From Candidatus Poribacteria bacterium (GTDB lineage: Bacteria; Poribacteria; WGA-4E; WGA-3G), in assembly GCA_963665235.2 (NCBI GenBank), contig CAXXLX010000001.1, forward strand, positions 2,112,001 to 2,176,000: 64,000 nucleotides of DNA, in the 5' to 3' direction. The first letter of the stretch is position 1; the number at the start of each line of letters is the position of its first letter. A model generated the notes under the pieces. The model worked only from the letters and a program-made list of their open reading frames with translations. It was not told the origin of the DNA and made no database searches. A program made the translations under genes and the position numbers. This document shows, one piece after another, positions 20,312 through 30,084 of this stretch.

Positions 20312-20917
20312 TTACGCTTCCTGTTTTGCCATGCTTGTGAGGATGCCGAGGACTTTGTCACACCGTTCAATTTGGTAGACAGTCATATCAATGTGAAGTG
20401 TTTGTCCCTCCAACTTGAGAAAACGCCAAAGCACGCCGGTCGTAGTTGCGCCATAGACGATAGGGATGTCATTCCCCGCTTCAGCATTAAAACGTTGTGC
20501 AGCAACCATCTCGGCTACACACTGCCCGAGTCCGACTTCAAGATTATCGTTCTTTGCCTCAACGAGAATAATAATCGGTGCCTCCAAATAAAATTGTACG
20601 GGTGAAAGACTTATCACAAAATCACAAACCCCGGTCAGTCCACTCTCCTCATCGACGTTGAAATCGATTCCTGAAAAAAGGCTAATCCTATGGTCTAATT
20701 GTTCACGGAGTTCAATGAGCACATCTGCGACAATCATTTCAGATTTTGCTTTCTCTGTCCCAATAGCTGTAGCTAACGGTATATTTCGCTCCAAAATGGT
20801 AGTGAGCACATCACTTGGCACCATGGGTTCTATACCAGAAAAAAGTCCGGCAGTATCAACCTCTTGGAGTTGAAATGCTGCCCGTGCAGCTGGTAAAGTA
20901 AAGTTGCTATATGCCAT
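20312..20917 (-). CDS. Putative PD-(D/E)XK nuclease-fold protein, tandem copy 1
   Basis: MAYSNFTL...EKAKSE...GVCDF...VEAKNDN...GLGQC.AEM..AQ.FN...TTG..WRF; 201 aa. Confidence 0.75.
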   Translation of the reverse strand: MAYSNFTLPAARAAFQLQEVDTAGLFSGIEPMVPSDVLTTILERNIPLATAIGTEKAKSEMIVADVLIELREQLDHRISLFSGIDFNVDEESGLTGVCDFVISLSPVQFYLEAPIIILVEAKNDNLEVGLGQCVAEMVAAQRFNAEAGNDIPIVYGATTTGVLWRFLKLEGQTLHIDMTVYQIERCDKVLGILTSMAKQEA

Positions 20918-20954
20918 GTGAAATAATCTCCGCTGTGGTGAGTTTACTACTAAC

Positions 20955-21560
20955 CTATGCCTTCTGTTCCACCATGCTTGCGAGGACACCGAGGACTTTG
21001 TCACACCGTTCAATTTGGTAGACATCGATGTCAATGGAAAGTGTTTGCCCCTCCAATTTGAGGAAACGCCAAAGCACGCCGGTCGTAGTTGCGCCGTAGA
21101 CGATAGGGATGTTATTTCCCTTTTCAGCATTAAAACGTTGTGCGGCCACCATCTCGGCTGCACACTGCCCAAGTCCGACTTCAAGATTATCGTTCTTTGC
21201 TTCAACTAGCATGATAACAGGTGCCTTCAAATAAAATTGCCAAGGTGAGAGACTGATCAGGAAATCACATACGCCTGTCAGTTCAGCATCGGCATCAACG
21301 TTGAAATCGATTCCTGAAAAAAGACTAATCCTATGGTCTAATTGCTCGCGGAGTTCAACAAGCACATCTGCGACAATCATTTCAGACTTTGCTTTCTCCG
21401 TCCCGATAGCCGTAGCTAAAGATATGTTTCGCTCCAAAATGGTAGTGAGCACATCACTTGGCACCATGGGTTCACAACCAGCAAAAATACCCGTAGTACC
21501 AATCTCTTCCAGATTAAACGCTTCCCGGGCTGTGTCTAAAGTAAAGTTGCTATAAGCCAT
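20955..21560 (-). CDS. Putative PD-(D/E)XK nuclease-fold protein, tandem copy 2
   Basis: 606-nt paralog with its own GGAG SD. Confidence 0.75.
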   Translation of the reverse strand: MAYSNFTLDTAREAFNLEEIGTTGIFAGCEPMVPSDVLTTILERNISLATAIGTEKAKSEMIVADVLVELREQLDHRISLFSGIDFNVDADAELTGVCDFLISLSPWQFYLKAPVIMLVEAKNDNLEVGLGQCAAEMVAAQRFNAEKGNNIPIVYGATTTGVLWRFLKLEGQTLSIDIDVYQIERCDKVLGVLASMVEQKA

Positions 21561-21621
21561 GTGAAATAACCTCCGCTGTGGCAAGTTTACCTTCAACTTA
21601 AGAGCGGGCTGTTTGCCCGAA

Positions 21622-22228
21622 TTATGCCTTCTGTTCCACCATGCTTGCAAGGATGCCGAGGACCTTGTCACATTGTGCGATTTGGTAGACAGCGATGTCA
21701 ATGGAAAGTGTTTTCCCCTCCAACTTGAGAAAACGCCATTCTGTGCCTGAGGTAGTCGCGCCATAGACGATAGGGATGTCATTTCCCTTTTCGTCATTAA
21801 AACGTTGTGCGGCAACCATCTCTGCTGCACACTGTCCAAGTCCGACTTCAAGGTTGTCGTTCTTCGCTTCAACTAGCATGATAACAGGTGCCTTCAAATA
21901 AAATTGCCAAGGTGAGAGACTGATCAGGAAATCACATACGCCTGTCAGTTCAGCATCGGCATCGACGTTGAAATCGATACCTGAAAAAAGACTGATTTTA
22001 TGGTCTAATTGCTCGCGGAGTTCGACGAGCACATCTGCGACAATCATTTCTGATTTTGCTTTCTCTGTCCCGATAGCCGTAGCTAATGGTATTTTTCGCT
22101 CCAAAATGGCAGTGAAGCAGGTCACTTGGCACCAGGGGTTCACAGTCAGCAAAAATACCCGCAGTACCAATCTCTTCCAGATTAAACGCTTCCCGGGCTG
22201 TGTCTAAGGTAAAGTTGCTATAAGCCAT
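21622..22228 (-). pseudogene. Tandem copy 3 with +1 frameshift (or sequencing error)
   Basis: 607 nt versus 606 nt; extra T near 22115 (CTGCTTCACT versus GTGCTCACT in copies 1 and 2). Confidence 0.7.
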
Positions 22229-26167: not shown

Positions 26168-26494
26168 GGGTGTGTAAAGTTTTTGGAGGTCCAAAGGATA
26201 GATAGAGGTTTGGAGGCGTGGAAATCCAGAATGACGTATCCGTTTTTCGGGGGTATGCCACCGTTATAGACCCCACCTAAGTTCTGACCCCAAATAGGAC
26301 TGTGTCCCCTAAAAACCAGTGATACCTAGGGGCCCGGAGGCGTGGAAATCCAGAATGATGCCCCTGTTTTTCGGGTGTCTGTCCCCATTATAGGTCCCGC
26401 CTAAGTTCTGCCCCCAAATAGCACTACGTCATTTTAGAAACGGCGGAGAACTACATGGTAAATTGCCCCATAAGTACAAAATATTTACACACCC
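26168..26494. mobile_element. Putative MITE with 18-bp imperfect inverted ends and internal 124-bp-period direct repeat
   Basis: GGGTGTGTAAAGTTTTTG ... CAAAATATTTACACACCC (16/18 inverted match). Internal repeats 26212-26306 and 26336-26430. No target-site duplication seen. Confidence 0.55.
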
Positions 26495-26512: not shown

Positions 26513-26614
26513 TTGACGTAAAATACCCAAAATGATATAATAAAAGCTGTTACCAAAACTTTACACATTCTACCTCTAAAAACAGTTGACTTTTTAGAAA
26601 GATAAAGGTATACT
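26513..26614 (+). promoter_or_regulatory. Two tandem sigma70 promoters upstream of the rpn-like gene
   Basis: TTGACG-17-TATAAT (26513-26541) and TTGACT-17-TATACT (26586-26614), the latter ending 6 nt before ATG 26621. Confidence 0.7.
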
Positions 26615-26620
26615 ATTTAT

Positions 26621-27520
26621 ATGCGACAATTTGACCCTATTGTTACACACATTATGGGCCTCTTCTCTTCAGAGTTTGCGAACCTTGTTTTCAATGAACC
26701 TGACCTTGAAGTCCTTGAGCAATTGGATACGAAGCAAGCTACCATTAAGGCCCATCAAAACGATTTGACTTTCAAAGTTCGGCGTGCCAATGGCGAGATG
26801 GTGATTCTCCACATAGAGGTACAAACCCGCGATAGCACTGACAGACCTATGTCGTTGCGCGTTTTAAACTATGCAAGCGCGCTTATGCTTCACTATCAGT
26901 TGCCAGTATATTCTATGGTGATTTATCTGGATCCGGCCGCGGGCCGCGGAGATACCGGCACATATCACTATGGAGATGACACGATGGGTTTGCGTTTCAA
27001 CTATAAGGTCATCCGTCTATCTGATTTAGAAGGTGAAGCATTTTTAGAGTCCCCTGCGATAGGGTTGCTCCCGTTTACGCCTTTGATGAAACGGCCTGTC
27101 GATATGACAGCCGAGTCATGGGTTGAAGCATGTGTTGCGAAGACACAAGCGGCACCTGTTGACACACAGACGCGGGGAACACTTTTATTTGCGCTATCTC
27201 TTCTCGGAAGTTTAGCGCATGACCCGGAACTTTTTCGGCGGTTTATATTGGAGGAAATTATGCAAGAGTCTCCCTTTTACGATATAGTTCTACAGGACGG
27301 TATTGAACAAGGTATTGAACAAGGTATTGAACAAGGGGAGCGCGGGGCATCCCTTAGACATATTATCGCTGTGCTGGCGACGCGTTTCCCGAATGCCGAT
27401 ATACCTCGTACTACCTCTGCGCTTGAGGCGATTGACGATATTGAACGTCTCACCGAGCTGCATACGCTTGCGGTTTCAGTACCTAATTTCACCGCTTTCT
27501 TACAAGTGCTTGATAGATAG
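26621..27520 (+). CDS. Rpn/YhgA-like recombination-promoting nuclease (PD-(D/E)XK transposase-like)
   Basis: HQNDLTF..ILHIEVQT..MSLRVLNY..LPVYSMVIYL; GIEQ repeats and helical C-terminal tail. Confidence 0.85.
   Translation: MRQFDPIVTHIMGLFSSEFANLVFNEPDLEVLEQLDTKQATIKAHQNDLTFKVRRANGEMVILHIEVQTRDSTDRPMSLRVLNYASALMLHYQLPVYSMVIYLDPAAGRGDTGTYHYGDDTMGLRFNYKVIRLSDLEGEAFLESPAIGLLPFTPLMKRPVDMTAESWVEACVAKTQAAPVDTQTRGTLLFALSLLGSLAHDPELFRRFILEEIMQESPFYDIVLQDGIEQGIEQGIEQGERGASLRHIIAVLATRFPNADIPRTTSALEAIDDIERLTELHTLAVSVPNFTAFLQVLDR
27260..27520 (+). CDS. Putative intragenic small product (RpnS-like antitoxin), 86 aa
   Basis: In-frame GGAGG-aaatt-ATG inside the rpn-like gene (SD 27250-27254). Confidence 0.55.
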   Translation: MQESPFYDIVLQDGIEQGIEQGIEQGERGASLRHIIAVLATRFPNADIPRTTSALEAIDDIERLTELHTLAVSVPNFTAFLQVLDR

Positions 27521-27712
27521 GGCTTTTTCAACCGATTTGATGAACCGCCTGTCGATATGACAGCCGAGGCATGGGTTGAGGCGTGTGTTGCGAAGACACA
27601 AGCAGCTCCTGTTGACACACAGACGCGGGGAACACTTTTATTTGCGCTATCTCTTCTCGGAAGTTTAGCGCACGACCCGGAACTTTTTCGGCGGTTTATA
27701 TTGGAGGAAATT

Positions 27713-27961
27713 ATGCAAGAGTCTCCCTTTTACGATATAGTTCTACAGGACGGTATTAAACAAGGTATTGAACAAGGGGAGCGCGGGGCATCCCTTAGAC
27801 ATATTATCGCTGTGCTGGCGACGCGTTTCCCGAATGCCGATATACCTCATGCCACCTCTGCGCTTGAGTCTGTTGACGATATTGAACGTCTCACCGAACT
27901 GCTTACCGTTGCGGTTTCAGTGCCTAATTTCAACGCTTTCTTGCAAGTGCTTGATAGATAG
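27713..27961 (+). CDS. Stand-alone duplicated Rpn C-terminal module (second RpnS-like protein, 82 aa; alternative start 27557)
   Basis: 27536-27972 duplicates 27082-27531 and keeps GGAGG+ATG; one fewer GIEQ unit. Confidence 0.6.
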   Translation: MQESPFYDIVLQDGIKQGIEQGERGASLRHIIAVLATRFPNADIPHATSALESVDDIERLTELLTVAVSVPNFNAFLQVLDR

Positions 27962-28181
27962 GGCTTTTTCAATTTGCGGCTGTCGGGGCAGCCATGCTTC
28001 TCCTATAGATGCCTATCACGACGGGCTGACATGCTTTCGGAATTTACTAAACGATATTGAACGCAGGATGCCAGATGCGCGTTCTGCCTGATTTGGCCTA
28101 TCAGGGATAAAGGGGGTCTTAAAGTCAGTGTTTATTTATTTTTCAACTTTACCATAACATCAAAAATCAACTTTTTAGTAA

Positions 28182-30084
28182 GTGAGGGAGGAAATAGTGA
28201 AATCAAAAGCACAAATATTATCTTTTCTGATAGTTTTACTCCTGCTTAGTACCGCACCGCTATCGCTCGCGCAAAAAGCATGGGTTACTGTCAACGAATC
28301 CGAGTGGCAAGCCACCTTCTCCGATGTCTTTTTCGTAGACGCACAACACGGCTGGATTGTCGGCAGCGATTCAACAATTCTACATACCACCGATGGCGGC
28401 ATGTCGTGGGCTCTGCAACCGAATCAGCGGTTACCTTTTCAAATTGAGCTAAAGAAGGTCAGGTTTATCAACCCTCAAGTCGGTTGGGTAGCAGGCGATA
28501 ACGGCACGATACTGAAAAGTACCGATGGCGGACAAACGTGGATAAAGTTACAAACTGGAACACGTGCTGTCCTGTCCACAGTCTTTTTCATAGATGAACA
28601 GCACGGTTGGGCAGGCGGCGATGGCGGGGTTGTTATCAGCACCCAAGATGGCGGAATAAGCTGGGTAAAGCAATACACTGATACCAACAATACCATAGAA
28701 TGTGTCCATTTTGTCAGTCCTGAAATTGGATGGGCAGTTGGGGCAGCGGGTACCCTTCTCCATACAGTTGATGGCGGAATGACTTGGACATCTCAAAACA
28801 GTAATACCGCTAATACCCTGACTGCCGTTTTTATGCAAAGCGATACAATCGGTTGGGCAGTCGGCGCACTAGGTGCCGTAATAGCGACTACCGACAGTAG
28901 CAAATGGAAAGCACAAACCAGCAATGTGCCCAACTCCAACGGAATGCCGGAACCGATTTACGACGTTCACTTCGCTAATCAAAACGTAGGGGCTCGCCGC
29001 TGCAGAATTCGGAGTCGTTCTCAGCACAAAGGATGGCGGAACAACCTGGAAACCGATTGAACCGCGCCCCGCTGCTGCACGGCTCCAAGGCGTTCACATG
29101 CTGAGCCCCAGTGAAGCATGGGTTGTCGGAGATAAGGCAACTATCCTCCGCACAACAGATGGCGGTAGCACCTGGGATGTCGTTTCCAACTTGAGCCATT
29201 TACGGGCTGCACATTTTCATAACGATAACCTTGGATGGGCGGTCGGCTTAGCAGGGGCAGTTTTACACACAAAAGATGGCGGAAAAACATGGGCACCCCA
29301 AAACAGTGGAAACGTCTTTGAGTTGTTCGGAATCGGGTTTGTCGACGAAAAAAGAGGATATATTGTCGGGAGCAATGCAGCATTGGTTGAAACACTCGAT
29401 GGCGGACAAACATGGAAAAGTGTTAGTGACCCTGGCGATGAAGGTCGTGGCACAGCCAAACGTATTCAGTTTGGTGGAGCAATGAGCTGGCGAAGCGCGA
29501 TGGGCTCTTACGGACTCAGCTTCGGAACCCCCACCCATGCATGGGCAGTCGGCGAAACAGGCAGAATTATGCACACCAACGACGGCGGAAAACTATGGAT
29601 TGGACAGGATTGCGACCCCGCCATGTCAGGCGTAGGATTTAATAATTTCTACGGCGTTCATTTCGTAAACGATAAGATCGGATGGATTGTCGGTGCAGCA
29701 GGAACTATTGCAGGAACAGCTGATGCCGGGCAAACATGGAATATTACCCTGGGGTTCGCTGAATTGCAAGATGTCTATGCTGTTACCCCGAAAACCGCCT
29801 GGGCCGCTGGTAGTCAAGGCACAATTATGGTTACCACAGATGGCGGAAGTACCTGGGGTGAACAGACCGTGCCAACCCAAGAAGACCTCAACGCCATTCT
29901 CTTTACAACTGAAAAAGAGGGATGGGCAGTCGGAAATAACGGCACAATCCTACATACAACCGATGGAGGTGTTACCTGGTTGAATTATAATTCGCCAACT
30001 CAGAAACATCTTTGGGATATTGTGAAAATGCCGAACGGCACATTGTGGATTGTCGGAGATTCAACGACAATTCTTCGCTACTAG
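28182..30084 (+). pseudogene. Ycf48/BNR-repeat exported beta-propeller protein split by one frameshift
   Basis: Repeated F.D...GW.VG..GTIL.T.DGG.TW blades. Removing one G from GGGG at 28989-28992 joins NQNVG to LAAAEFGVVLSTKDGG. Confidence 0.8.

Follow-up and report, generated by a model that had tools for sequence, protein, structure and literature searches.

The closest described counterparts of the locus analyzed here are the rpn genes of Escherichia coli, where separate small genes lie downstream of rpnC, rpnE, rpnF, and rpnP1 (Zhong et al. 2023 PNAS, PMC10400941; bioRxiv 10.1101/2023.05.02.539157). One of them, YpaA, is made as a protein; these second copies originated from the long gene of the same locus, upstream of them, and are lost either by deletion or by fusion with the N-terminal domain, and the small RpnS proteins are cognate-specific (Zhong et al. 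2023, PMC10400941). The second copies are noted also in a commentary by Koonin (PMC10400984). According to the legend of SI Fig. S1 in Zhong et al., the E. coli long forms are led by Shine–Dalgarno (SD) sequences. In our comparison SD-like leaders were seen at rpnA, rpnB, rpnC, and rpnE, and ypaA begins at its SD and carries one extra tetrad.

A related arrangement lies on the forward strand of the window, by which we mean the whole 64,000-nucleotide stretch of Poribacteria DNA that was analyzed. Like RpnE–YpaA (rpnE with rpnE_S'), it is a gene within a gene with an internal SD and start and a tract of 4-residue repeats, and its second small gene is a local duplicate that keeps the SD, is off by one repeat, and has diverged at its 3' end; the second copies of RpnC, RpnF, and RpnP1 show the same kind of layout. 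The second RpnS copy proposed in an earlier note on this DNA is thus supported, and being of the same kind as ypaA it is not new. The differences are several. Profile identity to the E. coli Rpn proteins is about 19%, the long form is SD-led in E. coli but predicted to be leaderless here, and the small form has ∼50–60 residues in E. coli versus 82–86 here. Unlike RpnE–YpaA, moreover, the focal copy carries ∼170 nt of upstream coding sequence, and the arrays of relatives hold up to three copies. Judged from its sequence, then, the locus is a divergent Rpn-like variant of a published second-copy layout.

The long form (RpnL-like; 26621–27520, + strand) encodes 299 residues, of which ∼1–136 make up a PD-(D/E)XK domain, followed by a helical middle and a C-terminal repeat helix and bundle. 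Its scores fall below the curated cut-offs, at 24.5 bits against 52.1 for TIGR01784 (E 2e-5) and 14.9 bits against 21 for PF04754. It shares the D...D...ExQ...R pattern and the fold class of the Rpn/YhgA family (PF04754 Transposase_31, TIGR01784, COG5464; small domain DUF4351 PF14261) and differs from it in these sub-cut-off scores. The protein is Rpn-like and divergent, and it is not a member of the curated PF04754 and TIGR01784 families; the earlier call of an Rpn nuclease holds for pattern and fold and fails at the curated models. Five of 68 homologs match DUF4351 (best E 6.6e-7), and 40 of 68 match TIGR01784 only weakly (best E 8.4e-7).

Three lines of evidence, alignment, conservation, and fold, point to an equivalent of the RpnA D11/D63/E82/Q84/R94 PD-(D/E)XK core. 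A 68-sequence profile aligned to E. coli RpnA, RpnB, RpnC, and RpnE over 231 columns (E 6.5e-5, with an hhalign probability of just 64%) places D48, E66, Q68, and R80 on RpnA D63, E82, Q84, and R94, which are needed for activity according to Kingston et al. (2017, PMC5350276). D5 lies outside this alignment and is paired with RpnA D11 by position only. We gauged conservation in 138 family genes, 123 intact genes from relatives and 15 from the source genome (G000). The relatives' genes come from 115 regions around the best 150 of 421 matches, with frameshifted genes excluded, such that the paralog sets of relatives are sampled in part only. Among the matches listed, D48, E66, and Q68 are invariant in 138 of 138 genes and D5 is present in 135. 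The AlphaFold model (mean pLDDT 88) has a restriction-endonuclease-like N-domain, with NucS as its best match (Z 8.5, rmsd 2.9, 101 aligned), followed by McrC, Can2, restriction enzymes, and others at Z 5–7. A Foldseek search with the model returned the same families, none at E ≤ 0.001, and a PDB sequence search gave nothing below E 0.06; RpnA_S (7TH0) was absent among the matches listed in that search and in both fold searches. A PADLOC scan of the 299-residue protein (P0001) and of P0002 gave nothing meaningful. Taken at the level of motif and fold, the long protein is likely a toxic nuclease. Its family is large, with 57 matches in the source genome and up to 96 in one relative, and it is present in 17 of 18 same-family genomes. 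Where close homologs have a named taxon it is always Candidatus Poribacteria, which makes this lineage likely for the source. The source genome also encodes a canonical PF04754 Rpn (L148:166–1582, − strand; 371 residues, 99.8 bits), which shares the focal C-domain type (49% over 75 residues) and has a downstream cassette that begins exactly at the SD, with three repeats fewer.

The internal start is the clearest feature of the gene. As the earlier note had described, an in-frame GGAGG (27250–27254) stands 5 nt before an ATG at 27260 (M214; the element spans 27250–27262, + strand) and opens an 86-residue frame, the predicted RpnS-like small form (27260–27520, + strand). Among the matches listed, 128 of the 138 sampled genes have GGAGG, 5 nt, and ATG or GTG at the identical column. 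The Glu codon within the SD is GAG in 132 of 138 genes, against 41% elsewhere in the same genes; the residue before it is any of nine amino acids, yet 134 of 138 genes have G as the last base of its codon. The internal Met is replaced by GTG-encoded Val in 23 genes, other replacements being almost absent, and the codon pair of the internal start ranks first and third in codon bias among the 308 columns of the profile. Because the SD pattern survives amino acid changes across related genes, the internal start is, on this comparative evidence, kept by selection on the DNA itself. The earlier claim of an internal RpnS start is borne out to this extent, and we predict that a small C-terminal protein is made from this conserved internal ribosome-binding site. 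No consensus promoter for the small form was found on the + strand inside the gene, and codon bias shows no distinct peak ahead of the SD.

The layout also agrees with RpnL/RpnS in having an in-frame ribosome-binding site and start before the C-terminal domain and variable 4-residue repeats that begin 13 residues after M214 (8–20 being the range expected). At the focal gene the repeats are three 12-nt GIEQ units (residues 227–238; 27299–27334, + strand). Close paralog pairs differ in repeat length in 27 of 28 cases, always by multiples of 4. The 86-residue protein, whose start is conserved, is predicted to form a homodimer, with a score of 0.68 against 0.00 for the best control, 96% contact agreement, and pLDDT of at least 88; in the prediction the chains pair in register via residues 223–240, with the repeats at the center of the interface. 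In a benchmark this mark was reached by 20 of 30 pairs of known structure and by 1 of 23 single chains. Resemblance to coiled coils of known structure may account for the score, which is silent on binding to the long form.

The long form appears to start differently. Its promoter-like site, reported earlier and reproduced here at the same coordinates (26586–26614, + strand), consists of a −35 TTGACT (26586–26591), a 17-nt spacer, and a −10 TATACT (26609–26614) that ends 6 nt before the ATG at 26621. The only SD-like run before this ATG is AAAGG, 12 nt upstream and touching the −10. A spacing of 6 nt places +1 on the ATG. A single such promoter match is not above chance on its own (4 found versus 4.4 in shuffles), but the family-wide position of the promoter does exceed chance: among the matches listed, 67 of 138 sampled genes have a promoter of at least 10/12 located 5–7 nt before an in-frame ATG, versus 15 of 2811 long ORFs in the source genome with the rpn genes counted in. 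These figures back the leaderless layout claimed for the long form. Seven of the 15 family genes of the source genome have this arrangement, and the spacing is constant across subfamilies whose N-terminal extensions run from 4 to 22 codons. Elsewhere in the source genome, leaderless-looking genes peak at 16 for a spacing of 6 nt, versus 1–4 at most adjacent spacings; thus a leaderless mode exists in this host. Its leaderless set is dominated by mobile genes together with rpn, and includes six near-identical genes beginning MxYVSAKKAS, presumably an IS607-like resolvase, that also have a promoter 5–7 nt before the ATG. We predict that the 299-residue form is made from a leaderless mRNA. Folding z-scores around the starts, from −0.7 to +1.3, gave no sign of regulatory RNA structure, and terminator-like matches were no commoner than chance.

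A second sigma70-type promoter-like site, missed by the earlier note, lies farther upstream (TTGACG-17-TG-TATAAT; 26513–26541, + strand). It scores 11/12 with an extended −10 and is stronger than the site at 26586–26614. The relative G003 has a counterpart, 87% identical, ∼110 nt upstream of the SD of a BNR gene and without rpn between them, and the site probably served originally as promoter of the BNR/YCF48-like gene that lies downstream. In the window the rpn unit sits between the two, whereas 10 of 11 BNR loci of relatives (1.5 kb flanks) are without an adjacent rpn; in G008, a different paralog lies beside the same BNR gene in the opposite orientation. From the promoter next to BNR in G003 and the rpn-free relatives, it follows that the rpn unit likely inserted ahead of a host gene, carrying a promoter of its own. 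The BNR/YCF48-like gene itself (28182–30084, + strand) is split into 292 and 328 residues, and matches in relatives have 622–682 residues in one frame (23 of 24); the split is probably an assembly indel. Upstream, a noncoding element at 26168–26494 consists of two 110-nt direct copies with 18-nt inverted ends and has ∼20 related places in the source genome, being MITE- or REP-like. No defense gene directly adjoins the rpn locus. Some 4.5 kb away, at 20312–22228 (− strand), three small PD-(D/E)XK genes that are almost identical stand in tandem, the third of them frameshifted; both of the genes scanned match PADLOC PDLC01472 (CRISPR-associated PD_DExK) at E ∼1e-48.

The downstream copy (27536–27972, + strand) comprises ∼170 nt of upstream coding remnant, the SD, a small ORF, and 3' flank. 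As had been reported, it duplicates 27082–27531 and keeps the SD and start without the nuclease domain; the two align over 450 columns at 92.4% identity, and copy 2 lacks one 12-nt GIEQ unit. The second cassette proper (RpnS'; 27703–27961, + strand) has GGAGG at 27703–27707 and an ATG at 27713 opening 82 codons, with one GIEQ unit fewer and eight amino acid changes (E>K, R>H, T>A, A>S, I>V, H>L, L>V, T>N), all correctly given before. A 134-residue ORF from ATG 27557 has no SD and is a less likely product than the 82-residue form. Readthrough of the stop codon into copy 2 is likewise not favored: the frames are continuous only via a one-base difference in an A-run (27543–27545), which is absent from the junction of a paralog, and the assembly has indel breaks. 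The shared upstream part, said to hold a single change, holds two, S165A and R157P, the latter just before the start of the 134-residue ORF.

From a clustering of changes in the small product, the earlier note had drawn the picture of a diversified cassette. The clustering is not above chance (Fisher p 0.16 to 0.36), and diversifying selection was rejected as unsupported, given the focal omega (dN/dS) of 0.43, a pooled omega of 0.29, and the nonsignificant Fisher test. Rather, the differences fall in recombination-like tracts: seven of the eight amino acid changes and all six synonymous changes lie within one 95-bp tract, 27408–27502, and in the tract 27155–27407 (+ strand), which includes the SD, start, and repeats, only 2 of 229 columns differ, against 19 of the remaining 187 (permutation p 0.003–0.007) and against 32–36 differences among paralogs. 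This pattern fits conversion, not diversifying selection, and the near-identical tract likely reflects gene conversion. Such tracts are not special to cassettes, as divergence is patchy in 14 of 28 cassette pairs and, at a similar rate, in 10 of 24 pairs of nontandem paralogs. The two copies are sisters (support 100/99) and share 21 alleles that none of three paralogs has, which argues for a local origin of copy 2. For the 21 substitutions between them, the copy-2 allele is found in a paralog in 16 cases and in all three in 7, and many of the changes thus occurred on the side of the full gene. The junction between the gene's 3' flank and the start of copy 2 (27532–27546, + strand) recurs in diverged form after the paralog G000:C1:3197393–3198268, which ends with it and a 20–35-nt cassette remnant; cassettes, therefore, get lost.

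Similar copies are widespread in the family. The survey of rpn loci that had been suggested found at least one cassette in 46 of the 138 sampled genes, among the matches listed; 30 of the 46 come from G003, and none was detected in 9 of 18 genomes. Detection relied on the start region, such that start-less copies would escape it, and one row lying inside a full gene was dropped. Of 62 cassettes, 60 keep the SD, 53 are open for 70 residues or more, and 9 are truncated. Among first cassettes, 27 of 46 begin at most 29 nt from the ATG; the longest begins 275 nt from it, and none reaches the catalytic residues. The pooled omega of 0.29 covers 34 close cassette–gene pairs, is a simple count without transition correction over nonindependent pairs, and could have accumulated while each cassette belonged to a full gene. 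Self-comparison of the source genome showed copies at 10 of 28 loci examined, and relatives have arrays of up to three. The G003 loci L045, L049, L043, and L048 are large arrays of full rpn genes with up to three cassettes, their repeat numbers all different; in one, a 121-residue form is accompanied by cassettes of 93, 105, and 113 residues. Selection for repeat mismatch as such was rejected, since the mismatch in cassette pairs (30 of 34) is equaled by that of ordinary close paralogs (27 of 28).

We consider it probable that the locus is a divergent Rpn-like gene within a gene, with a leaderless long nuclease, an internal small inhibitor, and a local second small gene serving as a spare C-terminus, but the downstream copy and the protein itself can be read in other ways. 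The copy could be a neutral relic of recombination near a nuclease gene, perhaps translated, without function, and due for deletion. The junction decayed to 20–35 nt at the other paralog, the 9 of 62 truncated cassettes, the unexceptional repeat mismatch, and a mini-rpn in the source genome (L150, G000:C1:3098253–3098101), in which the promoter and first 30 nt are joined to the last 80 nt, all agree with such a fate; the last is an internal deletion product and speaks to frequent rearrangement at these loci. A relic does not, however, account for breakpoints that crowd at the SD and never include the catalytic residues, for an SD kept in nearly every cassette with an omega well below one, or for the production of E. 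coli YpaA as a protein, and we think it unlikely. The earlier note had proposed, as one reading, immunity to paralogous Rpn toxins, which would be encoded at other loci of the genome, and the sharing of 16 of 21 copy-2 alleles with a paralog, the 15 of 52 cassettes that are nearer another paralog than their own gene, and the 4 that match a close paralog in length could be taken this way. But the focal cassette is nearest its own gene (90% amino acid identity), and all further small forms among the 16 source-genome genes compared stay below 80%. It has three glycine-tetrad units versus 5, 2, and 7 in the three close paralogs, length matches number only 4 of 52 family-wide, every paralog has its own internal SD, and RpnS proteins in E. 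coli are cognate-specific, all of which make the immunity reading distinctly improbable.

The protein might instead be mainly a recombination-promoting nuclease that aids the spread of its own gene, with the small form damping self-damage. The 57 matches in the source genome and up to 96 in a relative, the occurrence of lone insertions flanked by host genes, with another paralog next to the BNR gene in G008, and the rise in RecA-independent recombination caused by RpnA (Kingston 2017, PMC5350276) are in its favor, whereas no transposition features were found for these genes and RpnP2 protects against phage (Zhong et al. 2023, PMC10400941), and repeat hypervariability, with 27 of 28 close pairs differing, fits conflict-driven change. 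As the leading explanation it seems very improbable to us, and anti-phage and self-spread roles can coexist. Finally, the tandem copy might join two strain alleles in a metagenome assembly that is rated 5.65% contaminated and has indel-type breaks such as the split BNR gene, and the copies do differ at allele-like levels. Yet a paralog 1 Mb away keeps the same junction in diverged form, which makes an artifact unlikely; the 3' flanks of the two copies differ, and such copies occur at 10 of 28 loci of this genome, in 8 other genomes including fragmented assemblies, and in E. coli K-12. We give an artifact hardly any weight.

The gene-within-gene reading would work as follows; layout, conservation, fold class, and family-wide recurrence are observed, and translation, toxicity, inhibition, an anti-phage role, and exchange are what we infer from them. 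A leaderless mRNA would give the long PD-(D/E)XK protein, and the small protein, translated from the internal SD, would inhibit it by pairing via the GIEQ-repeat helix. A weak leaderless start set against a perfect GGAGG would keep the small form above the long form. The downstream copy would be a locally duplicated second small gene, likely still exchanging sequence with the first. If the repeat-matching rule of RpnC applies here, the missing repeat would make the second copy inhibit the present long form only poorly. Most likely this copy is retained as a spare C-terminus that is expressed, fits an allele of its own gene with one repeat fewer, and could replace the gene's C-terminus by recombination. 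The suggestion of a swappable C-terminal donor is in this sense plausible, and fusion-type loss of second copies is already in Zhong et al. 2023.

The donor idea had been likened to polymorphic toxins. Systems such as CdiA-CT/CdiI and Rhs have orphan C-terminal modules, and the likeness lies in a partial 3' copy with upstream homology able to recombine onto a conserved N-terminus. In contrast, the focal module is an inhibitor and dimerization domain, not a toxic one, with neither secretion nor a separate immunity gene. Orphan modules pair a toxic domain with its own immunity gene; the focal module has no nuclease domain.

A bolder extension is that, in this lineage, the mode of translation sets the toxin–antitoxin switch. 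Initiation on leaderless messages is weaker and is regulated differently, and with the nuclease leaderless and the antitoxin on a perfect SD, a shift away from SD-led initiation under stress or phage attack could free the nuclease. The RpnS' arrays might then be a selected archive of repeat-number variants that shields against slipped or incoming alleles and re-arms the gene by recombination. We offer this proposal as a speculation with little chance of being right; were it true, it would give a testable answer to how RpnL is activated.

The openly accessible literature searched, Dataset S1 of Zhong et al. excepted, yielded nothing on leaderless rpn genes or on an Rpn from Poribacteria, and the words "leaderless" and "Poribacteria" have 0 matches in the Zhong et al. 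SI appendix. The feature that thus appears unreported is the predicted leaderless message for the long toxin form. The scale of the arrays and the asymmetry between leaderless and SD-led starts would be the new points, and the evidence for the internal start in this subfamily is unusually clean. The focal pair, one repeat apart, lends itself to testing whether second copies act as inhibitors, de-repressors, or donors. More broadly, the locus adds to the Rpn proteins a large Rpn-like subfamily, for the most part unannotated, in what are likely Poribacteria.
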